Below, in pieces: positions 18,113 to 34,214 of a DNA stretch of 37,192 bases. A program made the position numbers and the translations under genes. Source of the stretch: Schmidtea polychroa (taxonomy: Eukaryota); assembly GCA_044892525.1 (NCBI GenBank), contig CM097885.1:31956809-31994000 (forward strand). Direction: 5' to 3'. Positions within the stretch are counted from its first letter, which is position 1. The number at the start of each line of letters is the position of its first letter. The notes below the pieces were generated by a model. That model was not told the DNA's origin. It saw only the letters and a program-made list of their open reading frames with translations, and did no database searches.

Positions 18113-18547
<435 letters not shown>

Positions 18548-19938: not shown

Positions 19939-21900
19939 CTACAAATATTTTGAAAAAAAAAATTGAAAAAAAGTGCATGTGTATAATAAATATTTTGGGC
20001 ATTATACAAAATAGAACTTTTTTTCATTAATTTACAAAGTAGAACACTTTTTTAAAACCAGAACATCAGTTAATATTGAAAGTTTTTATACAAATAAGAT
20101 GATTTGAAATCATTGATTTCCAGAAATAATTAATAACATTAAAAAAACAGACAGCCTCTTTAAATTAAATTTTTTTATTAATTTTTTTTTGTCTTGGGGT
20201 TTTCCCACATTGTTTGAGCGCATCTATTAAAATGTGTTTAAATTAATCGAAAAATAGAATGGTTTGGGAAATTCAGCGGGGCACTTGATTCACTCGATTT
20301 CTTTCTAAGCCAGTGTTAATATCGACAATGTTGATATCGAAGGCGAAGTGCCTTGGAATGTGCAATTTTATCCCAAGAAAAGGATAAAGCTTGGAAAGTC
20401 TCTAATGAAATGAATAGTTTTCATAGAATGTATAAGCATCAGGTTTTCTGTCTTTGAATTTAGTGGACACATCTTTTCATATTATTTTAATTTATTCATT
20501 CCTATCAATAACTCAAGAAAAGTATTTGTGTTGAAACTTTAAACTAAGAGGCCACTCACAAAAACTGTTTATGTCTATATAAAAAAAGCCCAGTGTCGTC
20601 ATCGGATGCTGTGTGGCATTCTGTAACGAAATTTAACCAACTACGGATCCTCACTCCCAAAATGCCATACAAATACATAGAATATATTTAAATCGTTAAA
20701 GCTAATTTAGAAGACATACCTGAAATTTCTAAGAAATTAAATGGTTCAAGCCTATTATATGCAAGGAACTTTCACTGTAACTGCTGAATTAAATCAGCAG
20801 ATAAGCAGGCGTGGAATTTTATATAATATTATATAAACATCTAGTCAATTAAAGTCATATAACTGGTTTCTGTTAATATATCTCTTGCTTTATAGTACTC
20901 GTCTGCTGTACATTCACGCAAATTAATGACATGTAGATTATTTTTAACCCTTCCTAAGATGTTCTGAAATTATATAGAAATATCCCTTTAAAATCAATAA
21001 TACTCCGAATAAATTTTGACGAAGTTGAAGGTAATGACGTCAAAGTTTTTAAAGCATTATATTATAAACTTAAATAAACAAATTAGAAAGAATTAATAAA
21101 TTTAATATTTAGACTATTGACTCTTGGAGATAGGGTTTCTGTTTTTTGAGAGCCGTTTTCCGTTTTTACTAATATATAAATTCTGCAATAGAAGCGAAAT
21201 TTTTTTAAAAACTTTTTTGTTCTTTTATTTAAATCGAACTCCAAAGAGACCAGTGTGTGCTGATAGAATGTTAGCAGTTCCTATTTTTAACCATTTTTTC
21301 AAAAAATACTTTCCATATTTTTCATTAACACAATTTTTGCAAACAAATAAAAAATGCAAATATTAAAATAATTAAAAATGGGTTGAAAACTGCAATAACA
21401 AAGTGTGAGATCAATTTTTCGGAAGGTATCTGTGAATTTGAAATGTCACATAAGCTCATTAATATAAAAGAAGTGGATAGAATTTCAATTTTGCTAATTT
21501 CTTTTCTAAACAAATTATTTAACAAAGAATTTTTAAAATTGTGATGATTTGATTAGATTCTTTGTACGGAAAGTATATGTAAATAACACAACGAGAAAGA
21601 TATCTCTAAAGCCGTAATATTTATTCATCCAAAGCTAGTTAGACTAAATAAATAATATTTTCTAAAATATTATTTTTAAAGCTTTAAATTACTTTAACGG
21701 TTTTTAAAAAATTCGAATGTTTTTGTGCTAAAATGCGATACTAGCGCCACCTAGAAGATGCCAAGCTAAGTTCTATCCGCATAATCTGGAAAAAAATGTG
21801 AATTTCCTTTTAATTTTTAAACTAATTTCAATAGAATAAAGTAATTTTCACAGTGTTTTAATCCATAATGGATTATCCATTCTTTAAAAATTTGATTATA

Positions 21901-22150
21901 CACCCATACCTCGCTTTACGGCCTACATACGTTCCACGAAACTTGGCCGCAAAGCGAAAAGCCGTATAAGAAATCGAGATTGCGCTTGCGTAAGATTGGC
22001 AACATGTAGATATATCGACATCGAAAAAAAGTTTTTTTATGCCGTTATAGCGAAACATTTTAGGCCGTGAATCGAAAACGTGCCTTAATTAAAGAGGGCC
22101 GTTATAGCGAAATGCCGTATAAAGAGCGGCCGTATAGCGAGGTATGGATG
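21901..22150. mobile_element. Tc1/mariner(pogo)-type MITE, 250 bp
   Basis: TIRs CA(C/T)CCATACCTCGCT(T/A)TACGGCC; TA dinucleotide on both sides (21899-21900, 22151-22152); internal GCCGT(T)ATAGCGA repeats. Confidence 0.8.
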
Positions 22151-23550
22151 TATTATCCATAATTTTAGAGATATCAAGAATTTGGGATTATGCAACTAAG
22201 CGCAAAAATACAACAACAAATGAACTCGAAGGCATATGTAATCGATGCGGAAAAACAATCAAGTGCGTAAAATCCTCCGTTACTACTTTAAAGACACATC
22301 TCAAAGCAAATGGCATCATTATCGAGATGAATGAACAATCAAGTGAAGAACCCGCTTCAAAGAAACCAAAGACAATATGGGATTTCATGACAAAACCATT
22401 TCGGAAGGAAACAGTTTCTGATCTTGAAACCGAAGGGATTGCAATTAGAACAATAACGCGAAATAGCTATATCCGTAAATCGATTCAACGAGATGGCTTC
22501 AAACTACCAGAAAACGAGTCTGATGTGATGAAACCTTTGCTTGTCGAATACAACGAGAAGAGAGAAAAAATGGAGACTGAAATTCGCTCGATGATACAGG
22601 AAGTTAAATTCAGCATGACGGTCGACGAGTATACTACGATTCATGGCCCACACTTTATCGGAATCAACTTACACGATAGCGTAGAGAAAATGATATGGAA
22701 AACCGGAATTATTCGTATTTTGGGATCTTGCCCTGCCGAGGGCATGTTCAATTCTATCAAGCAGCATTTGATCTCATTTGGAATTAATCCTGAGTGTGAT
22801 CTTGATGCTTCAACTCAAGACAGTGCCGCTGTTAACAAAAAGTACATAAGGGTCCAGGGCGTTATTTGCCAATTTTGCTTTAATCATGCTTTTCACTCGG
22901 ATGTCACCGATACTCTTTACAAAAAGCAAGACAAGATTCAAGATGAAGTTGATTTTGATGAAAATGATGAATTCGACGGAACTGACTTTGAAATCATTGA
23001 TAGCAATACGAACGAATAAATTCAATATAATGAACTTTTCATACAAGCCAGGAAAGTAGTGAAGTACATTAAATTTTCACCAGTTAGGAATTATGCTTTT
23101 CAAGGTAAAGTAAAAGGAAAGCTGAACAAAGAAGTAAAACTGCATTTGGACGAGAAAAAACATCACTAGAATTCAATCCCAGAGCTATTTTAGCCACTCA
23201 TTGAGACTGAAGAAGCACTCAAAGAAACCTTAAAAGATCTCAACGCGAGTTATATGATCGAAAATCTTGATTTTGACGCAAGGTTTTGCTAGCTACGATG
23301 ACTCCAAAAAAACTGATCGTTGAAGTATTAAGCAGAGAAGATTAAACGCTTCAAACTGCAGACACCGATTTTATGTATCGCAAGCTTGCCGGTATGAAAA
23401 GTACAATAAGTGCGGTCTTCTCAAAAATTTGAAAAAAAGAGTGTATGAACGATGGAATCATGATGTAATGAATTTATTACGAGGTGTAAAGGATCCCAAC
23501 ATGGTGAGAACACATAACACAATTATTTATGAAGGAAAGCTCTTCACTCA
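22151..23550 (+). pseudogene. Decayed hAT transposase with N-terminal BED zinc finger, interrupted by the gypsy element
   Basis: IWDY...CNRCGKTIK...TTLKTHL (BED finger); SMTVDEYT (first catalytic D); STQDSAAVN; CFNHAFH (CxxH); degraded TRWNS near 23165. Stops and frameshifts after 23019. The annotated ATG at 22144 lies inside the MITE end. Confidence 0.85.
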
Positions 23551-23764: not shown

Positions 23765-25023
23765 TCCCCCTTCTTAAGAATTTTTTTAAGTTTTTCCACG
23801 TTTCTTTCAATCTTTATTCCATTCTCATTTATTAAGATATATCGCCTGTCATGCACTTTCTCGATTACTTTATATGGTCCCTCATATCTGTCTTGGCTTT
23901 TGTTGCGTGTTTCTAATTTTACTAACACATTTTCTCCTACGTTGAATTCCCTCCTTGTTTGTTCTTCTTGTTCTTCCTTTACCTGTTTTTCTTTGACCCG
24001 TACCACTTTTCCCTGCTAATTTTTTTTCCAAAAACTATCTCTGCCGGAATTTTTCCTGTCGCTTTTTGTTTGGTTGCGTTTAATGTAAATTCGACTTCTG
24101 GTAGTATCTCTGCCCAATCCGTCTTCCTTCTGTCTCGTAAAGTAGCATATATCAGCTCTCGTATTGTCCTTAATTGCATTTCTATCTGTCAATTTATTTG
24201 GTGATGGTATGGACTCGAAAAACACAACTTAATATCAATCATCTTTGTGAATTCTCTCATCATTCCTGATTCCCACAATCAACTCTTATCTACTTTGAGC
24301 ATCCAAATCTTAAAATCCATTTTTCTAAAATCGTTTTATTTATTGTTTCCTCGTTTTGTCTTGTTATAGCTGTCAAGACTTGATACTTACTATACTTATT
24401 ATACCCAATATATACATTATATATATAGTATATATACCCAATATATTATACATTTCGGTTGATTCTAGATTTTTTACTGGTTCCTTCGTTGTAATTGTTA
24501 TAGCCTTGGTTTTTTGGCAAGTCTCACAACTTCGAATAGTTTCCTGAATCTGACTCCACAGGTTTTTCCTAATATATCTATCTTTCATATAATGGGCTAT
24601 CTTCTCAACTCCAGCCTGACACAATAGTCTATGAATTTCCTTTATGGTTTCTTGTATCTCGTTTTCTGGTATCATCGTTTACTTTCGTCATTCTTTTTTC
24701 AAGTTTCCATGTTGATTGGGGCTTTCACCTTCTTCTCTGATCGAGTCTAGTAATCTAGTTTTTATCTTTCCTCTCTTAGCTTCTTCATGAGCCATTTGAC
24801 ATTGAACACACGTTTCACATATAGTTCTAGACATCATGTCTGAATTTTGGTGATTAACACCCTTTCTATATTCAACGATCATATCTAAACTGCTCAAATA
24901 ATTGATCCAGGTTTGGAATTGTGAAGTAATTGGCTACTTGGTTGTCATCATAAACGTGACCGCCTTGTGGCCTGTCCTTAGCGTGAATCTCCTTCCGTAG
25001 AGATAGTACTAGAAATGAATACA
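23765..25023 (-). pseudogene. pol: Gypsy pol 3' part: rest of RNase H and integrase (degenerate)
   Basis: YLYGRRFTLRTDH and EYRKGVNHQNSDMMSR (RNase H); IHRLLCQ...CETCQ (HHCC remnant); SSPYHHQ...QIE core; RYEGPYKVIEKV (GPY/F motif). Confidence 0.9.
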
Positions 25024-25657
25024 AGTAGATGGTATGGTCACCGCTAGAACAGGTCACCGCTGGAACAAAGACATTTTTACCCCACCCCCCCCCCGGCCGG
25101 AAAAAATTTTTAAAAATTTTTTTTTCAAGAACAAAGACATATGACTCATCCGATGACTCATCAAGCATTCAAGGTCGACTTAAGAACAAAGACATATGAC
25201 TCATCCGATGATATATAATTATTATTATTTTTAAAAATATTATTATTTCTAATGTCTTTGTTCCAGCGGTGACCTACTATTTGGCCTGCCAAAAGTTATC
25301 GTTCCCATCAACCTATTTCATCGATCGATAGCTTATTTTGAAGCTTGGTGCAAGACCTTTCGAATGAGCTATTGTTGTTATCACCATCTTTAATATTGAC
25401 AAAGTNNNNNNNNNNNNNNNNNNNNNNNNNNNNNNNNNNNNNNNNNNNNNNNNNNNNNNNNNNNNNNNNNNNNNNNNNNNNNNNNNNNNNNNNNNNNNNN
25501 NNNNNNNNNNNNNNNNNNNNNNNNNNNNNNNNNNNNNNNNNNNNNNNNNNNNNNNNNNNNNNNNNNNNNNNNNNNNNNNCTCCGAGTTTATCCGACAAAA
25601 TATTTTGTCCCCCTATGGGTAATGCTCACAAGGGTACTGGTCACGCTCAACAAATCA
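25024..25657 (+). repeat. Left TIR of the Polinton-like element
   Basis: Reverse complement of 33586-34208, including an N run at the same position; differs by repeat-unit slippage and a few inner substitutions. Confidence 0.92.
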
Positions 25658-25682
25658 ACAAATCAACAAAACATACATTTAT

Positions 25683-26183
25683 TTAAACAATAAAATAATG
25701 TAAAATTAACAAAGGTGAACTAAATATTGATGTACTACTATTCGCAGCAATATTGTTAGAAATTGGTAACGTTGAATTGATTTTCAGATATTCTATTGAT
25801 CCTTTGATTGTTTGAATTTCTCTTAATAATAATTCAATCTTTTTTAATAAATAATCATGCTTCTTATCAATAATTTTCATATTCTTTTTATTTTCAACAA
25901 TAGAGTTATTGAAAACCTCAATATGATCAATCAATTTAATTTTTATATTTTGTATATATTCAAATGATAGTTCATAACTGTTTTCCAAATTCTCCAATCT
26001 TTGAGATATTCTTTTTCCTGGATGCTTTGACCATTTTGGTTTGTCGAGAATATATAAAATATCCATCAACTTGGCTGTATTCGGACAAACACATATTGAT
26101 TTATTAAAAGACTCCACTGTTATTGTTGTATTGTGTGAGCACACACTCGTTATAATAATTAGCAATATGAATATAGTTTTCAT
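25683..26183 (-). CDS. Secreted or GPI-anchored glycoprotein-like protein with coiled coil (166 aa)
   Basis: N-terminal MKTIFILLIIITSVCS signal peptide; heptad-like central region; NxS/T sites (NTT, NKS, NNS, NST, NSS); small-residue stretch followed by a hydrophobic C-terminal tail; TATA ~30 nt upstream. Confidence 0.65.
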   Translation of the reverse strand: MKTIFILLIIITSVCSHNTTITVESFNKSICVCPNTAKLMDILYILDKPKWSKHPGKRISQRLENLENSYELSFEYIQNIKIKLIDHIEVFNNSIVENKKNMKIIDKKHDYLLKKIELLLREIQTIKGSIEYLKINSTLPISNNIAANSSTSIFSSPLLILHYFIV

Positions 26184-26288
26184 GGTGTATCAAATCAAAA
26201 CCATTCTTTTACATTTATAGTCTATCAACCAATCAAAATCATACAGTATTAGTATAAATAAAACATCATATTTTAAATTATTGTAAAA

Positions 26289-26795
26289 ATGTCTCATTTT
26301 ATGGAAAAACTTTTCTCGTCAACAAGAATATTATGGAAAGCCTAAGTTTCCTGGTCGATCGGACCGAAAAGATTATAGAAGGTAATCACATTGATTATGA
26401 GGACGTGCTCAATTCCGATTCCCTCGAAACGAAGAAATTCTATTTTAATAGGATTTTAACTGTCTATGCGACGAGGAGATGAAGTGGACCCGAATATTAG
26501 TAGGGTTCGCTTATATGAAGATCATAATGGAAAGAAGTCTATGGGACTCTGAACATTATTATCAGTGGTCTCAAGAAGTAATACTTTTATAATCTATATT
26601 TTATTAATATTTATTTTCTAGATAATCAAGTCAAAGTTTCAGCCATGGATTGAAGCCAATGGCGGATGGGGCGTGCTGAATCAACTCGCCAGAAATGCAA
26701 AGGAAATAGATCAGCAGAAAATCAAATTTAAAAACTATTTAAAACTTGCAACAGGTGTTGCTATTTTGTATGTTTTATGTCGGTTTTTTAAATAA
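26289..26795 (+). CDS. Bcl-2 family protein (BH3-like, BH1, BH2, C-terminal TM) with a 44-nt intron (26578-26621) and apparent 1-nt frameshift(s); possibly a pseudogene or sequence error
   Basis: BH1-like DEEMKWTRILVGFAY (26470-26514); BH2 WIEANGGW (26646-26669); tail LATGVAILYVLCRFFK*; GT...TTTTCTAG phase-0 intron. The upstream part (MESLSFLVDRTEKII..., from 26333) is in another frame, with a shift near 26467 and possibly near 26292. Confidence 0.8.
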
Positions 26796-26872
26796 AAATT
26801 AATATAGTTATTTTGTTTGATTTTTAAATAAAATTTTAAATAAATTTACAAACACTAATTAACTAAGATTTA

Positions 26873-27154
26873 TTAATTAACACATTCGCAGTCGTCATCT
26901 CCACATTTCATTATATTTTCAACGACATGATCAATACAATCGTTCGTAATATTATCTTTAGATTCATCTTTAGGTTCCTCTATAGGTTCCTCTATAGGTT
27001 CATCTATAGGTTCATAGATTTCCTCTTGAGTTTCTTCCTCATCATCAAATCCTGTATCTTGACTCTCAACTAACCAGCCGATATTTAAGGCATTTGTAAT
27101 AGATAATATGTCCTCAATTTTCACACCAGATATTTCTGCTAACTTTTCCAACAA
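26873..27154 (-). CDS. Small acidic protein with EPI(D/E)E repeats; start uncertain
   Basis: Open frame with coding-like composition; no in-frame ATG found, so it may have an upstream exon or a frameshift. Confidence 0.4.
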   Translation of the reverse strand: MLEKLAEISGVKIEDILSITNALNIGWLVESQDTGFDDEEETQEEIYEPIDEPIEEPIEEPKDESKDNITNDCIDHVVENIMKCGDDDCECVN

Positions 27155-27360
27155 AAGGTTGATTAAAAATTCAAAATAATAAATAATTCGGTAATTAATA
27201 AATCATGTTAACCTTTTTCTGCAGTCATTTTCATCACTTTAAAACTATATTATAAGTTTGTTTATAGATTTTCTTTGTTAAATTTGCATGTCATTTGCAT
27301 TTATGTTGCAATTAATAAAGAGAAAAACAAATCTGACTAATACATTTATTAAATATAACA

Positions 27361-27789
27361 TTAAAATATTTGTGAAAGTCTAGGAGACATAATTTTCCAA
27401 ATAGGAGAATATACATCATTATTATCAACTTTATATCCCTGGATTGCAATTATTATATACCAATTTTCATTTTCTTTGAAACTGATTTCATCAAAAGCAT
27501 CATAAAATCTTGCATATCTATTGTTGAACCACGCATGTTGATTACACGATAGATTCGAATCTATCCGTTTAAAAACATCATCAATAGTTTTGACATCAAT
27601 CATTGAAAGCGTGCCGGATAAGAATTCAAATTTAGTTGGAATTAGCTTGACTGGTGCAACCAATTTCATATTGATTTCTTCTTTCAAAAAATACATTTTG
27701 TAGTTGTGGAACATTTGAACTGGTTGTACCATTTGAACTGGTTGTATCATTTCTTTAGGTTTTTCGGTGCTTGAAATTTTCTTAGTCAT
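27361..27789 (-). CDS. Hypothetical 142-aa protein, possibly OB-fold/ssDNA-binding-like
   Basis: ATG-to-stop ORF with TATAAAAA at 27830-27823. The C-terminal IIIAIQGYKV...YSPIWKI pattern recalls viral gp32-like SSB beta strands (weak inference). Confidence 0.6.
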   Translation of the reverse strand: MTKKISSTEKPKEMIQPVQMVQPVQMFHNYKMYFLKEEINMKLVAPVKLIPTKFEFLSGTLSMIDVKTIDDVFKRIDSNLSCNQHAWFNNRYARFYDAFDEISFKENENWYIIIAIQGYKVDNNDVYSPIWKIMSPRLSQIF

Positions 27790-28163
27790 CGTGAATAATG
27801 AATAAATTTAAATGTTACAGGGTTTTTATACCTTTGACTCATGCCTATCAACCAATCAGATTATAGCATGTCTTTGTTTAAATTGCATTCAAAATGCATT
27901 GATGTTGCATTGTCACATGTTCTATTATTTTTATTAATGTTTTATTATTATTAATGTTTTNNNNNNNNNNNNNNNNNNNNNNNNNNNNNNNNNNNNNNNN
28001 NNNNNNNNNNNNNNNNNNNNNNNNNNNNNNNNNNNNNNNNNNNNNNNNNNNNNNNNNNNNNNNNNNNNNNNNNNNNNNNNNNNNNNNNNNNNNNNNNNNN
28101 NNNNNNNNNNNNNNNNNNNNNNNNNNNNNNNNNNNNNNNNATAAAACACAATAAAAAATACAT

Positions 28164-28581
28164 TTATAGGTAACCTAAATCTACAATCCGGGAGTAGTGA
28201 AACCTTCTCAGAGTTTTCACTAACTCCCATTCGACATATCGCCGATATTGATCGGCACAGCATGAGCATCCGATGATGCATTGGTACTCCGGCTCCATTT
28301 GTTTCATAGTTCTGTTGATTTTCACATTCCATAAAAATTGGTGAAATACCTCCATTATTCTAATTTGCGTGGCATAAAAAATCAAATCAGGGATGATTTC
28401 CGGTTCCCGATCTTTGATTACTTCAGCAATTTGCGGATAATAATATTTTATCCTATTAATCATTATTTTTAAATATTTTTCTAAAATAATAAATATAAAA
28501 AAATGTGAAAATAAAAATTTTAAATTTACCATAATCATCAATATCCTTCATGAGATTCGCGGCGCTCGGAATTTTGTACAT
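28164..28581 (-). CDS. Spliced hypothetical protein (exons 28581-28530 and 28480-28164; 49-nt intron); CxxxCxCC motif
   Basis: ATG 28581 MYKIPSAANLMKDIDDY-G|GTAAATT...TTTTAG|AA restores the frame (...DDYEKYLKIMINRIK...). The ORF track's N-terminus is intron read-through. Confidence 0.7.
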
Positions 28582-28653
28582 AGTGAAATAAATGAATCCT
28601 AAACAAAAAACCGTTTGTTTAAATCAATCAATAACCAATTAGAAATTAACCAA

Positions 28654-29091
28654 TTAGAAATCGACCAATGAAATTATCTCATTTCGAACCTTGTCAACAA
28701 ATTCTCTATACTCCAAATTTCTCAACCCCAACATGACAACCTTTCCACTAGCAAACACGTTGACACATATAGGGTTATATTTTAATAGTCTTAGTGCCGG
28801 AAACAATTCCGGTTCAAACATACAATCACATTTTTTCGATATGTTATATAGATTGATACTATGTCCCATATCCATAGTAACGGTAATTGATTGGATTATA
28901 ATATTATTTATTCGATATTGTAATTTATTAATATCCAAAGGTTTCTTACATCCCATGATTCTGCATTTACCAGTCTTGAAAAATATTATCGGATATTTCC
29001 CACTTCTATCGATAATTTGCTGGGGTTTCCCTGGTGGGAACCTCATATTCGATACATCAAAATTTCCTCGATAATTTATATTTGCTAACAT
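28654..29091 (-). CDS. TATA-binding-protein (TBP)-like protein, minimal two-repeat core (145 aa)
   Basis: Repeat 2 FEPELFPALRL...VNVFASGKVVMLG matches TBP YEPELFPGLIY...LIFxSGKVVLTG; repeat 1 IIFFKTGKCRIMGCK matches LIFSSGKMVCTGAK; QSITVTMDMGHSINL matches QNMVGSCDVxFPIRL. Confidence 0.85.
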   Translation of the reverse strand: MLANINYRGNFDVSNMRFPPGKPQQIIDRSGKYPIIFFKTGKCRIMGCKKPLDINKLQYRINNIIIQSITVTMDMGHSINLYNISKKCDCMFEPELFPALRLLKYNPICVNVFASGKVVMLGLRNLEYREFVDKVRNEIISLVDF

Positions 29092-29190
29092 TATTAAATC
29101 ATTTATGAAAATTAGTCTTTATATACAAATTGAGCACGAGTTCATTAAATCATCGAATATAAACAAATACACATATATAAAATCTTTGAA

Positions 29191-29817
29191 ATGGAATTAA
29201 GAAATGATGCAGTATACCAAATCGTTGGTCCGAGTGGTAGTGGAAAAACATTATTTGTTTGTAAATTACTAAAATCAAATTTATTCAAATCAAAATTCAA
29301 CAGGATTTATTGGCATAGGGGTGCTGATGAAGAACATGGATTAACTCAATCAAGTTTCTGTAAATTAAAAAACATGAAAATAGTAAAGGGATTCGATAAA
29401 AACTGGTCCAGCCGATTAAAGAAAGGTGATGTCATTATTATCGATGATTTGTATCAAGAAGCTAATAAAGAAAAAGATTTTAATAATTTATTTTCAAAGA
29501 TCAGCAGACATGTCGGTGTAACAGTTATTTTCATAACACAAAATCTATTTCATCAAGGTGGGGCACATCGAACACGTAATTTAAATGTACAATATTTAGT
29601 CATTTTCAAGAATCCTAGAGATGCAACAGTGATTGATTTTCTTGCACGTCAAGCATACCCTAACAATCGTAATTTTCTTATCAGTGCATTTCAAGATGCT
29701 ACAAAAATACCTCATGGATATATATTTCTTGATTTCACACAACAATGTCCCGATGATTTACGTGTAAAAACAGATATCTTCAACCCAAAAGGTGTCATGG
29801 TTTATAAACAAAGTTGA
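29191..29817 (+). CDS. Polinton A32-like (FtsK/HerA) DNA-packaging ATPase
   Basis: Walker A GPSGSGKT; Walker B IIIDD; ITQNLF, FKNPRD, LARQAYP and PHGYIFLD motifs typical of Polinton ATPases. Confidence 0.92.
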   Translation: MELRNDAVYQIVGPSGSGKTLFVCKLLKSNLFKSKFNRIYWHRGADEEHGLTQSSFCKLKNMKIVKGFDKNWSSRLKKGDVIIIDDLYQEANKEKDFNNLFSKISRHVGVTVIFITQNLFHQGGAHRTRNLNVQYLVIFKNPRDATVIDFLARQAYPNNRNFLISAFQDATKIPHGYIFLDFTQQCPDDLRVKTDIFNPKGVMVYKQS

Positions 29818-29875
29818 AAACCTCTATGAATAATAATGTTTCTAAAAGCAAGGGTGAAAAATATTAGGAAATTAA

Positions 29876-32800
29876 GAAAAAGTATTAGAAAGAGTATTAA
29901 AGTTCCAAAAGTTCCACCAACAACTAGTTATACACCGTCTAAAAAACTTTTTCTCCAATAACGCCGAAGTTTTTTCCGATAATTTTCTATTAGAGGGCAT
30001 CACTAAGTTAAATAATAAAATTGAAAAATTCACCTATTTAGGAAGCGGATGGCGGGTTGTTAGGATAAAAGAAATAGATTTTATAATAAATAAATATAAA
30101 TGTATAAATAGATTAGCTGGACATAGTTACATCCCCACCCCAGCGGCTTTAAATTCTAAAAAAGCAATTGTAAATATACAGAACACAGATGATATGTGTT
30201 TCATCTATAGTATTCTAGCCCTCTTAAAGCGTGATATTATACACCGCAATAGGCACCGTGTTACTGCTTATGAGAGTTATTTAAACGAGATCAATTTCGA
30301 CCCTATTAGTGATTGCCCGATGAAATTATGTGACATACCCAAATTTGAACGCAAAAACAGTGAACTGAACTTGGCTATTAACGTTTTAACTTATAGGAAT
30401 AAACCAGCTAAGCCTATTGAACATCAAGATATAGATTATATTCCCCATCACCCACATCTAGATATTATTCACCGCTCTAAGGTTATAGGTGGTGAACCCA
30501 TATATTTATTATTATTAGAAGACGGTAGTTATTTTCATTACACCGCAGTTTTTGATCTGCAAAAACTTATGAATTGTCATCCTAATAATTCCTGTAATAT
30601 ACAAATTTGCGTAAAATGGTGTCCTCATTGCCTTAATGGCTTTAGATATAATAAGATATTTAATATACATGTAGATTTATGTAGTAAGAACCAAATAGGT
30701 ACTACATTGTATACCCTACCTAAGGACAAAAATTTAATTTTTAAAGATTTTTCCAAAAGAATAACCCCGCCATTCGTGATATATGCCGATTTTGAGGCAA
30801 TTTTACCTGAAGACATCACCCACCACCAAAAACATATGCCAATAACAGCAGGCATGTTATTAATTAATAATTATAATAATACCAGATTTTATTATGAGTT
30901 TGTTGGGGATGATTGTGTGTTGTCTTTCTTGCGTAAGGTGGAGGAAATTGCTGTCACAATTGTCCTACCATATTACGAAATTAATGGGAAAAAGCCCATG
31001 CAAACCTTGTCTTTCACTGAAGAACGTGTTTTTCGAGAATCCAGAACCTGTTACCTTTGTAAAAAATTCATTAAAGATAGAGTTAGGGATCATTGTCACT
31101 TCACAGGCAAGTATCTTGGTGCTGCCTGTAGGAACTGTAATGTTTCGCGACGAATTCAGAAACAGTTACCGGTTGTCTTTCACAATTTGAGGGGGTATGA
31201 TTTACATCATATTTTGAAGTATGGTTTGAATAATTTTCCTTCTTGGGAATTAAATATTATTCCGACTACTACTGAGAAATTCATCTCCCTCATCGCGTAT
31301 ATTAACAAATTGCCTGTTCGTTTTATTGACAGCATGCAGTTTGTTAATTCATCTTTAGCAAAAGCAGTTAAAACTCTTTCCGATCTGCCTTTAACTTCTT
31401 CTGTTTTTGATGGCGCAATTGTTCGAGCCAAAGGTATCTTTCCTTATGACTTTGCTACATCGCTTGAGGTTCTGGAATCGACTCTTGAACTACCTCCGAT
31501 CTGGGATTCTGTGTCTAATGATGAGTATGCATTAGCCCAAGTTATTTGGACTCAGCAAAATTGCAACAACATGTTAGATTACATGTTAACTTACCTTAAA
31601 TTAGACGTGTTTCTCCTCGCAGATTATTTTACTCAATTCCGTGAAAAGGCCATTGCTTACAATGGTCTGGAGCCTCTTAATTTCTATGGCATTCCCGGTA
31701 TGTCATGGGCCTCAGCGCTTATGACATTAACGGAACCCATTGAACTTCTGCAGGACATGGAAATGTTTAATTTCTATGAAGGAGGGATACGGGGTGGGTT
31801 AACATTTGTTAACAAACATTATGTTGTAAGTTCTGAAGACACAGAACTCTTGTATATTGACATAAATAACTTGTATGGTTGGGCCTTAAGCCAAAAGCTT
31901 CCGTATGCTGACTTTGAATGGGTGTATGATGATCTTGATTCTGTCTTGAATGAATGTATGAATGAGGATATTGAAAATCTTCCATATGGATATACAATGG
32001 AAGTAGATATTGATATCCCTCAGTGTGTGCATGATTTTTTGAATGATTTTCCGATTGCTCCGGAAAAAATGTGCCCGCCAGATTCGAAAGTTGAGAAGCT
32101 GATGCTCACGCATTGGCCGAAGAAGAACCATGTTCTTCATTGGCGACTTCTCAAGTTGTATATAGAATTGGGGGCTGTAATTAAAAATGTACATAGGGCA
32201 ATTAAATTTAAACATGCACCCATTTTTAAAGATTACATATCGACTAATACTAATTTGCGCTCAAATTCTACATGCGAGCTGCATAGAGATTTATATAAAT
32301 TATTTAATAATAGTCTGTATGGGAAATCCGTGGAAAACCTTAAAAAACGGATGAATTTGAGGCTATGCAATTCAGCTGAAAAGATGATTGTATATGCTTC
32401 AAAGCCGACTTTCAAGAAATCAATCAAAATGGCTGATGACTTGATTGCTGCACATCTAAATAAGGATTCTATATGTTTAGACAGGCCTATCTACATTGGC
32501 CAATCTGTGCTAGACCTGTCTAAACTGAGGATGTACCAGTTACAGTATATAGAATTGGCAAAATATCGTTTAGAGTTTAACTGTGATATAAATATCGTTG
32601 CCGGCGACACCGACTCCTTTTTCTTAGAGATAAAGCACTGTAAGCTTGACACTCTTTTGCCGGCAATGATTCGTGATAATCTTCTAGATACCAGCAATTA
32701 TGATCCTGCTCATCCTTTGTATTCAAAGAGTTTGGATTCTGTGATAGGGAAATTTAAGGACGAAAGTAAAGGGCTTGGTTATAAGGAGTGGGTTTTCTTG

Positions 32801-33295
32801 CGCCCTAAGTGTTATAGTTTGTTAGGAGATAAGGCAACACTTAGGGCTAAGGGAGTTCAGCTTGGTAATACTGAGATAGAGCACCAGTCTTATTTAGACT
32901 GCTACAACAACAGCGTAGTATATACGGTGCCACAAACTAGAATAGGGACTCGTAACCACCAGCTCTTTACTTTTAAGAACAGTAAAATAGCCTTGTCGAA
33001 CAACGATGACAAGAGACTATGGGTGGGGCCTAATTCCAGTCTGGCATATGGGCATTATTTAGGATTTGACGAAACTGATGATGGTCAGATATTTTCTGAA
33101 GTAGGACCACATTTTGGTGGCTTGAGTCCAGACCTTGACGATGACTCGGATCCTGATAATCCTGATATTCCTGGTCAGATATTCGAAGAGATTGGCCCGT
33201 TTTTTGGGGGTTTGAGCCCCGATTTTGATGAAGACTCAGACATTTTTATTAGAGAAATCGGCATCGATATTGACGATGTCATTTTATCAGATTAA
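29876..33295 (+). CDS. polB: Protein-primed family B DNA polymerase (pPolB) with an endonuclease VII-like zinc domain; the true start lies upstream of 30194
   Basis: Frame open from 29876 and includes the Polinton N-terminal GSGW...SYIP...KKAIVNIQN motif; DHCHFTGKYLGAAC; Exo I YADFE, Exo II FHNLRGYD, Exo III YLKLDV; Pol A DINNLYG, B KLFNNSLYGK, C GDTDS. Confidence 0.95.
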   Translation, partial: EKVLERVLKFQKFHQQLVIHRLKNFFSNNAEVFSDNFLLEGITKLNNKIEKFTYLGSGWRVVRIKEIDFIINKYKCINRLAGHSYIPTPAALNSKKAIVNIQNTDDMCFIYSILALLKRDIIHRNRHRVTAYESYLNEINFDPISDCPMKLCDIPKFERKNSELNLAINVLTYRNKPAKPIEHQDIDYIPHHPHLDIIHRSKVIGGEPIYLLLLEDGSYFHYTAVFDLQKLMNCHPNNSCNIQICVKWCPHCLNGFRYNKIFNIHVDLCSKNQIGTTLYTLPKDKNLIFKDFSKRITPPFVIYADFEAILPEDITHHQKHMPITAGMLLINNYNNTRFYYEFVGDDCVLSFLRKVEEIAVTIVLPYYEINGKKPMQTLSFTEERVFRESRTCYLCKKFIKDRVRDHCHFTGKYLGAACRNCNVSRRIQKQLPVVFHNLRGYDLHHILKYGLNNFPSWELNIIPTTTEKFISLIAYINKLPVRFIDSMQFVNSSLAKAVKTLSDLPLTSSVFDGAIVRAKGIFPYDFATSLEVLESTLELPPIWDSVSNDEYALAQVIWTQQNCNNMLDYMLTYLKLDVFLLADYFTQFREKAIAYNGLEPLNFYGIPGMSWASALMTLTEPIELLQDMEMFNFYEGGIRGGLTFVNKHYVVSSEDTELLYIDINNLYGWALSQKLPYADFEWVYDDLDSVLNECMNEDIENLPYGYTMEVDIDIPQCVHDFLNDFPIAPEKMCPPDSKVEKLMLTHWPKKNHVLHWRLLKLYIELGAVIKNVHRAIKFKHAPIFKDYISTNTNLRSNSTCELHRDLYKLFNNSLYGKSVENLKKRMNLRLCNSAEKMIVYASKPTFKKSIKMADDLIAAHLNKDSICLDRPIYIGQSVLDLSKLRMYQLQYIELAKYRLEFNCDINIVAGDTDSFFLEIKHCKLDTLLPAMIRDNLLDTSNYDPAHPLYSKSLDSVIGKFKDESKGLGYKEWVFLRPKCYSLLGDKATLRAKGVQLGNTEIEHQSYLDCYNNSVVYTVPQTRIGTRNHQLFTFKNSKIALSNNDDKRLWVGPNSSLAYGHYLGFDETDDGQIFSEVGPHFGGLSPDLDDDSDPDNPDIPGQIFEEIGPFFGGLSPDFDEDSDIFIREIGIDIDDVILSD

Positions 33296-33543
33296 TTTGT
33301 GTTTTAATATATTTTTAAAAAAAAAATAGTCTTTATATTGTTTTATTTCGTTTTATTGAAAACTGGTGATAGTTTTCAAGGTTCTTACAACAGTTAAACG
33401 CTTGTATAAATATATAAAAATTTGATTATTTCACACAAGTGTTAACTTTTGAAAGAATTTTGTTAGAAATTTTATATTTTTATTGTGTAATAGTGTTGCA
33501 GTGGGCACGCAACATTATTTATCTGTTGATAGGATTTTTTTTT

Positions 33544-33545
<2 letters not shown>

Positions 33546-33580
<35 letters not shown>
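33546..33580. repeat. (AAT)n microsatellite just inside the right TIR
   Basis: About 11 AAT units read directly. Confidence 0.9.
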
Positions 33581-33581
<1 letters not shown>

Positions 33582-33585
33582 CCTT

Positions 33586-34208
33586 GTGAGTTGTTGAGCA
33601 TGAGCAGTACCCTTTTGAGCATTACCCATAGGGGGACAAAATATTTTGTCGGATAAACTCGGAGNNNNNNNNNNNNNNNNNNNNNNNNNNNNNNNNNNNN
33701 NNNNNNNNNNNNNNNNNNNNNNNNNNNNNNNNNNNNNNNNNNNNNNNNNNNNNNNNNNNNNNNNNNNNNNNNNNNNNNNNNNNNNNNNNNNNNNNNNNNN
33801 NNNNNNNNNNNNNNNNNNNNNNNNNNNNNNNNNNNACTTTGTCAATATTAAAGATGGTGATAACAACAATAGCTCATTCGAAAGGTCTTGCACCAAGCTT
33901 CAAAATAAGCTATCGATCGATGAAATAGGTTGATGGGAACGATAACTTTTGGCAGGCCAAATAGTAGGTCACCGCTGGAACAAAGACATTAGAAATAATA
34001 ATAATTATATATCATCGGATGAGTCATATGTCTTTGTTCTTAAGTCGACCTTGAATGCTTGATGAGTCATCGGATGAGTCATCGGATGAGTCATATGTCT
34101 TTGTTCTTGAAAAAAAATTTTATAATTTTTTCCGGCCGGGGGGGGGGTGGGGTAAAAATGTCTTTGTTCCAGCGGTGACCTGTTCTAGCGGTGACCATAC
34201 CATCTACT
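33586..34208 (-). repeat. Right TIR of the Polinton-like element
   Basis: Inverted copy of the left TIR; one extra GATGAGTCATCG unit. Confidence 0.92.
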
Positions 34209-34214
34209 AATACA

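Follow-up and report, generated by a model that had tools for sequence, protein, structure and literature searches.

The window, i.e., the whole stretch of 37,192 nucleotides from contig CM097885.1 of Schmidtea polychroa (assembly GCA_044892525.1) that was analysed, contains a 9185-bp unit (25024-34208) that constitutes an internally deleted Polinton. Its inverted ends comprise approximately 630 bp with a core of 345 nt that is 99% complementary, and it is bordered by a 6-bp target duplication; one further copy of the element with its own 6-bp target duplication was found. The window element is inserted into a Gypsy-like retrotransposon, the flanks carrying reverse transcriptase and integrase-zinc domains (Pfam). 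The gene for a small TBP-like protein, termed mini-TBP in the following, resides inside these inverted ends and the target duplication, which bears out its initial annotation as element-encoded. The features of the unit are:

25024 to 25657, plus strand: left terminal inverted repeat, starting AGTAGA, target duplication AATACA at 25018-25023
25683 to 26183, minus strand: ORF of 166 aa with hydrophobic ends and a coiled-coil middle
26258 to 26795, plus strand: Bcl-2-like pieces with a probable intron, frame broken in the window copy
26873 to 27202, minus strand: acidic ORF with a TATAAACA box upstream at 27259-27266
27361 to 27789, minus strand: conserved SSB-like neighbour of the TBP gene, 142 aa, canonical TATA upstream
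28164 to 28538, minus strand: orphan ORF of 124 aa, also found in subfamilies of this genome
28654 to 29091, minus strand: mini-TBP gene, 145 aa, intact from ATG to stop (Pfam, AlphaFold2 model, Foldseek)
29117 to 29125, minus strand: canonical TATA box TATATAAAG, located 34 nt before the TBP gene starts, assigned from sequence with a presumed function
29158 to 29165, plus strand: TATAAACA box of the ATPase gene, 33 nt ahead of its start, in head-to-head arrangement with the TBP gene
29191 to 29817, plus strand: A32-like packaging ATPase, 208 aa (Pfam Pox_A32, E 5e-7)
29803 to 29810, plus strand: second TATAAACA box, in the 3' end of the ATPase gene (codons YKQ), 33 nt before the basic core-protein-like gene
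29836 to 29949, plus strand: basic core-protein-like gene, a stub cut by the internal deletion
29950 to 33295, plus strand: protein-primed DNA polymerase B (pPolB; Pfam DNA_pol_B_2, E 2e-28), N-terminal part absent
33587 to 34208, minus strand: right terminal inverted repeat, ending TCTACT, duplication AATACA at 34209-34214

The deletion removed about 7 kb from position 29950 on, including the integrase, penton-like, capsid and protease genes as well as the start of the polymerase gene, of which other copies carry a longer form. In 12/12 other regions of this genome, half of them chosen via TBP and half via the capsid-like gene, the order is TBP, ATPase, core-like, RVE integrase, penton-like, PX and capsid-like gene, and an adenain protease comes after the capsid gene. 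Integrase occurs in all 12 of these regions, with a Pfam rve match on one relative, and is absent from the window copy. The core-like, penton-like, PX and capsid genes are presumably what their names say, judging from order, size and motifs; no Pfam match was obtained for the capsid-like and penton-like genes, the candidates for a double jelly-roll major capsid protein and a penton. The Bcl-2-like pieces carry BH1- and BH2-like motifs, with no Pfam match for these pieces. As the window copy lacks integrase and capsid genes it is non-autonomous, and the targets open to its mini-TBP could therefore be only its own ATPase promoter and, in trans, other copies. The 142-aa neighbour of the mini-TBP was found at 21 of 80 metagenomic loci kept for context. 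The best Foldseek matches of its model, phage Enc34 SSB and ASFV CP312R, stay below significance (best E 0.1, probability 0.89), and the resemblance to the Enc34 single-stranded-DNA-binding protein is a lead only.

Relatives of the element carry additional genes for a ubiquitin-conjugating enzyme, a KilA-N protein, a PLA2-like protein and a RING finger protein (L048:222-719, L104:7142-8002, L104:9086-9487 and L090:13312-13893). In two copies (loci L142-L144 and L157-L159) the polymerase is replaced by genes from the left-hand side of the same copy, duplicated in inverted orientation.

With regard to the protein itself, the mini-TBP matches PF00352 in two stretches with 56.8 bits, well above the cut-off of 22.9 (E 2e-15), and a sequence search against the PDB yielded a match that covers mainly repeat 2. 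An AlphaFold2 model derived from a 95-sequence alignment (pLDDT 96.1) can be superimposed on yeast TBP (residues 66-240) over all 145 residues with a Z score of 13.4 and an rmsd of 2.4 Å, from which it follows that both lobes are present; unrelated folds reached Z scores of 6.3 or less, and in a Foldseek search of the PDB the first 44 places are taken by TBP chains or by complexes that contain TBP. A TBP fold is thus predicted, and the ORF, the PF00352 match and the model agree with the earlier description of an intact 145-aa reading frame with both TBP repeats. Repeat 2 contains, as had been stated, the EPELFP (residues 93-98) and FASGKV (residues 113-118) motifs with both phenylalanines, F97 and F113. 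Repeat 1 retains F38 and probably has P23 at its first Phe site, which renders the proposed loss of one phenylalanine from this repeat likely rather than certain. The register of P23 depends on the alignment, as it is based on pairwise alignment and on a strand offset of 74 residues between the repeats in the model (E25-28 vs. E99-102); the large family alignment shifts the spot by three residues.

In comparison with cellular TBP (eukaryotic TBP/TRF and archaeal TBP; PF00352), with which it shares 23-26% identity in structural alignment, the mini-TBP has the same two-lobed saddle, three of four phenylalanines, the proline following the lobe-2 phenylalanine and the TFIIB glutamates, but is about 30 residues shorter, has proline at one Phe site and exhibits a polar, re-wired saddle. 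Its model contains no helix of four or more residues before residue 81, and lobe 1 is devoid of helices H1 and H2: N4-Q67 spans 63 residues vs. 89 in plant-type TBP, and the H2 region 20 residues vs. 33 in canonical TBP. Both helices are missing in the short subgroup of Polinton TBPs and retained in shortened form in a longer one.

A family alignment of 247 proteins was reduced to 213 rows by removal of sequences below 120 aa and of five cellular-like proteins, and 193 of these rows span both lobes. Among the latter, the four intercalating phenylalanines of canonical TBP are reduced to three (F38 and F97 in 192/193 each, F113 in 193/193), and P23 is found at the first Phe site in 184/193 and P98 after the lobe-2 phenylalanine in 168/193. 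The TFIIB-contact glutamates are kept (E93 in 179/193, E95 in 191/193). Polar or otherwise changed residues of the saddle are N6 (157/193), R44 (191/193), M46 (193/193), R101 (158/193), C109 (164/193) and N111 (193/193), and S68 and T70 are also changed and near-fixed. The saddle residues of this family are thus near-invariant yet unlike those of cellular TBP. R101, C109 and N111 align to I194, V203 and L205 in a yeast numbering anchored on the alignment to plant-type TBP. In PMC1636458, I194, V203 and L205 are named as the three positions changed in TBPm3, a TBP mutant with altered specificity, and the N-lobe of TBP is stated to touch the 3' half of the TATA box. Two C-lobe glutamates of TBP constitute the contact to TFIIB, at which viral TBPs have mostly diverged, and a basic patch on the N-lobe (H2) serves as the common site for TFIIA, TAF1, Mot1 and Brf1/2 (PMC7221094, available portion). 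On the model, the mini-TBP would not offer this basic surface of the canonical N-lobe. Taken together, the residue pattern may be read as that of a DNA-binding, TFIIB-competent protein that prefers a new sequence and offers no docking site to host regulators. DNA bending or the stability of the protein could suffer from the loss of one phenylalanine and two helices.

The mini-TBP is widespread. In this genome at least 150 open copies exist: the best 150 of 4157 candidates are all full length, 97-100% identical and free of stop codons, although the finding that all of them are intact is biased by sampling according to rank. Six subfamilies are present, the TBPs of which are 53-89% identical to that of the window. 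dN/dS amounts to about 0.12-0.19 between the window TBP and three other subfamilies and to 0.17-0.34 among these three, with dS near saturation; on these sequence comparisons, the mini-TBP is under purifying selection. An excess of synonymous changes in the 30 best copies (19 of 26 distinct changes) carries no weight in this respect, since these copies had been ranked by protein score. Between subfamilies, TBP identity is 60% vs. 96% for the ATPase and dS is about 2.2 vs. about 0.36. As synonymous distance differs in the same way as identity, swapping of modules rather than fast evolution of TBP is indicated. A mosaic structure is apparent in the subfamilies (L124-L159, L168, L173, L236 and L237), with ATPases 95-96%, TBPs 54-62% and polymerases 63-90% identical, and terminal repeats differ between copies that have the same TBP.

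Outside this genome, 108 of 115 candidates from a protein search match the mini-TBP, a profile search returned 813 clusters at E 1e-10 with canonical TBPs included, and a metagenomic search yielded 177 matching loci. Among the 80 of these 177 loci that were kept for context, 33 carry a core Polinton gene; of the 21 loci that measure 4 kb or more, 18 do so. The ORF is therefore conserved in related elements, as the occurrence in at least 150 copies, six subfamilies and 177 metagenomic loci documents. An Atlas search with a 97%-identical homologue found only TBP clusters with thin taxon records, and no longer or fused TBP forms appeared among 5250 candidates of 407-2000 aa, which is weak evidence. 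Contigs from four sequencing runs cover the TBP gene, and strand, level and RNA origin cannot be read from these contigs.

In a FastTree phylogeny of 41 sequences and 168 columns, as had been suggested for clarifying the relationship to other TBPs, the Polinton TBPs group together in a single clade with a support of 0.89, separate from the canonical TBP of the host. A divergent host paralogue, L167, is placed beside this clade on a very long branch, which precludes naming the donor of the Polinton TBP. Shortness and the loss of one phenylalanine and two helices could also be signs of a recently captured host TBP decaying without a role. Purifying selection and the existence of more than 100 relatives, the invariant non-cellular residues and the position of the clade apart from canonical host TBP oppose this idea, which we reject as having a negligible probability.

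The mini-TBP and ATPase genes of the window are oriented head-to-head with a 99-nt gap between them. Going by sequence, the TATATAAAG motif before the mini-TBP gene is likely an early promoter for host TBP. The TATAAACA box before the ATPase gene was present in 27/27 listed copies, other and same copies counted alike. In aligned upstream regions of homologous genes a non-canonical TATA-like box selective for virion genes became apparent in the form YATAAACA. After removal of near-duplicates, ATAAAC occurred in sense orientation within 110 nt of the start of 23/23 ATPase, 8/8 core-like, 10/10 capsid, 7/7 penton-like, 6/6 PX and 3/4 integrase genes, and not once in antisense orientation in the same regions. 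In 200 dinucleotide shuffles, means (and maxima) were 2.0 (6) for ATPase, 1.2 (4) for core-like, 0.8 (4) for capsid, 0.9 (3) for penton-like and 0.6 (3) for PX genes. For TBP genes, ATAAAC was found in 5/58 (shuffle mean 4.0), YATAAACA in 0/58 and canonical TATAWAWR in 25/58 upstream regions. The box is present upstream of 0/3 polymerase genes, and none was seen directly upstream of the protease gene in the copies mapped. It also precedes non-virion genes, namely 3/8 SSB-like genes and 9/12 genes for a 154-aa protein.

The base following YATAAA, position 7 of the box, is C in 55/67 late cases vs. 1/31 cases upstream of TBP genes; it falls in the 3' half, i.e., on the side of the N-lobe. In cellular TATA matrices C accounts for only 1-2% at this position (PMC10005294, available portion). 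The box is common to lineages with ATPases that are only 35-39% identical, and a genome search with one divergent family member retrieved only further subfamilies with the same box. Where it lies in coding sequence it forces minority codons (Ile ATA 36%, Asn AAC 29%). Over the whole window the box is not enriched, with 13 occurrences vs. a shuffle mean of 8.1 and 8/100 shuffles reaching 13, and a single box cannot provide specificity without further context because it is common in this A+T-rich genome.

The distance from box to start codon is 31-49 nt for 21/23 ATPase genes and mostly so for core-like genes, and spacing is loose, up to about 105 nt, before penton-like, PX and integrase genes. 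At L155:2514-2741 (plus strand) the start of the integrase gene is overlapped by a 75-aa ORF beginning with MG; the box assigned to the integrase in relatives is located about 33 nt before this MG ORF, the product of which may be a myristoylated virion protein. In many cases the box coincides partly with, or lies immediately before, the stop codon of the gene ahead of it, and TATAAA and CATAAA are variants of the poly(A) signal, such that the box might be envisaged not as a promoter but as a signal by which the transcript of that gene is polyadenylated or terminated. We regard this as very improbable. The ATPase box is situated in a head-to-head gap without any same-strand gene end (elements of this genome and L079), the capsid gene of L036, L090 and L104, where the cluster ends, has no box behind it, and the box keeps a more uniform distance to the start that follows it than to the stop that precedes it.

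For comparison, 42 other Polinton- or virophage-like contigs with an ATPase were inspected that gave no TBP match with the family profile; these contigs are partial and their absence of TBP is unproven, and integrase was seen on only 13/42. YATAAACA occurs in 0/29 distinct ATPase upstream regions of these controls and ATAAAC in two. In L189-L198, 10/10 related Polinton contigs, TATAAATA or TATAAAAG takes the place of the box, and since these are one clade the contrast represents a few independent lineages and not 29. A scan of viral contigs with the TBP alignment uncovered a single giant-virus-like TBP, L031, without Polinton genes and without the box, and scans of viral contigs with TBP, capsid and ATPase alignments yielded nothing beyond it.

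Instead of the mini-TBP, a host factor (TBP, a paralogue or a forkhead protein) or a helper virus might read the box, with the mini-TBP serving elsewhere, e.g., at early promoters or a replication origin. The host possesses at least seven TBP-family genes, several of them divergent, virophages share promoter motifs with their helper viruses, and the forkhead site resembles ATAAACA. Furthermore, cellular TBP is weakly active on TATAAAC, TATAAACG having kept 27% activity in one plant assay (PMC10005294, available portion). On the other hand, the box is strictly in sense orientation and at TATA distance, neither of which a forkhead enhancer site would need, it tracks TBP-bearing elements over very different lineages and is missing from the controls, and the saddle residues of the family are near-invariant yet unlike cellular TBP. 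A host or helper-virus factor as reader of the box is accordingly unlikely, though it is the foremost of the alternatives.

We therefore favour, with a probability of roughly 0.7, the interpretation that the mini-TBP is the late-gene switch of the element, acting via TATAAACA together with host TFIIB and Pol II. Support is correlational and comprises fold, conservation, residue pattern, genomic context, box position and selectivity for gene classes. Host TBP would transcribe the genes for the mini-TBP, the SSB-like protein and other early proteins from normal TATA boxes, the early timing of the mini-TBP being deduced from the canonical TATA at its gene. The mini-TBP would then bind TATAAACA before packaging and capsid genes, as predicted from co-occurrence and the re-wired saddle, and recruit host TFIIB and Pol II to the box. 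Use of host TFIIB is suggested by the kept glutamates and by the lack of a TFIIB family match in the elements: this family has only 21 matches in the whole genome vs. thousands of element candidates. Packaging, integrase and capsid genes would thereby be switched on late and, given that H1 and H2 are missing, beyond TFIIA-, TAF1-, Mot1- and Brf-type control. The wider statement, that a whole lineage of animal Polintons holds the smallest known virus-specific promoter system, in which a host-regulator-free, TFIIB-linked TBP of 145 aa reads TATAAACA as an early-to-late switch, appears to us only slightly better than an even proposition.

The initial annotation had considered a private or dominant-negative basal transcription factor that could redirect Pol II to the element's own promoters or alter TATA specificity. 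A private factor that redirects Pol II with altered specificity gains strong indirect backing from the matching non-canonical box before virion genes and from the lack of this box in relatives without a detected TBP. The dominant-negative alternative found no support, as an activator fits better with TFIIB-contact glutamates that are kept and a regulator-binding surface that is lost. An antagonist of the host that ties up TFIIB or sits on host TATA boxes, the box being unrelated, might still be construed from the retained TFIIB-contact loop in a protein devoid of H1/H2 and one phenylalanine, and from the location of the gene among accessory genes, e.g., the Bcl-2-like one. However, a decoy needs no conserved, altered saddle, the missing surface is the one bound by inhibitors and coactivators, a poison gene with thousands of candidates in the genome would presumably be costly, and the correlation with the box would be left unexplained. 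We consider such an antagonist improbable.

The late-gene switch has its closest functional parallel in the herpesvirus TBP mimics KSHV ORF24, EBV BcRF1 and HCMV UL87 with their TATTWAA late box, which, according to the accessible text of PMC12529657, likewise combine a virus-encoded TBP, a polar DNA face, a non-canonical box before virion genes and host Pol II. As described there, ORF24 is large, comprises several domains, belongs to a complex of six proteins and has four phenylalanines without the TFIIB glutamates, whereas the Polinton TBP is a lone 145-aa core with another box and with the glutamates kept, so that it would use host TFIIB. Structural matches between the mini-TBP and the mimics are weak (Foldseek E 0.01-0.1). 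By analogy, the mini-TBP would work like ORF24 but is no homologue of it. TBP-like proteins of giant viruses (Nucleocytoviricota) are similar in representing a viral TBP fold that has lost the eukaryotic N-lobe signature, for which evasion of Mot1-type control has been proposed; most of these viruses have their own TFIIB, and the TFIIB-contact residues of their TBPs have diverged (PMC7221094, available portion). In the Polinton elements studied here, by contrast, no TFIIB or RNA polymerase gene was seen and the contact residues are kept.

The elements share pPolB, RVE integrase, A32-like ATPase, adenain protease, capsid-like genes, inverted ends (AG...CT) and a 6-bp duplication with Polintons, Mavericks and adintoviruses as described in the accessible parts of PMC8502044 and PMC8097293. 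A 'TBP' gene is labelled in a figure legend for MELD viruses (PMC8502044; preprint 10.1101/697771); in its accessible parts PMC8502044 contains the label only, with no residue analysis or promoter, and there were no matches in one supplementary file. The available main texts of 10.64898/2026.06.19.733378, 10.64898/2026.10.13.758929, PMC11131425, PMC10748475, PMC11161782 and PMC8097293 do not mention TBP or TATA. Within the literature searched, the legend label would thus be what was already known, and neither a late-promoter system for Polintons nor a promoter system around the Polinton TBP was found; figures, bioRxiv supplements, subscription journals or Repbase may hold a prior description.

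These findings bear on how Polintons time their genes and on whether animal Polintons make particles alone. The box represents a candidate late-gene marker across the Polinton lineage for which a single small protein and a motif of 8 bp suffice as test material, and the mini-TBP is a natural test of what a TBP can lose, i.e., two helices and one phenylalanine, with transcription still starting. If true, the proposed switch would provide a natural orthogonal TBP-promoter pair as a candidate for synthetic biology and evidence for a regulated nuclear virion phase of integrated elements without a helper virus.

Several further observations concern the host genome and the remainder of the window. 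Besides one canonical TBP, the genome encodes six or more divergent members of the TBP family (loci L160-L167). The core of host TFIIB is spread across more than one exon, and 13 of the 21 TFIIB-family matches reside in clustered, near-identical ORFs of approximately 300 aa. A 483-aa low-complexity ORF without Pfam match is present at 3465-4916 (minus strand) of the window, and the last exon of a host homeobox gene (WFQNRR) at 18116-18547 (plus strand). A BED-finger transposase-like fragment (22144-23019, plus strand, and 21894-22157) follows a pair of 30-nt inverted repeats, and a hairpin-forming inverted repeat at 7413-7708 with 103-nt arms of 90% identity is probably a small mobile element.
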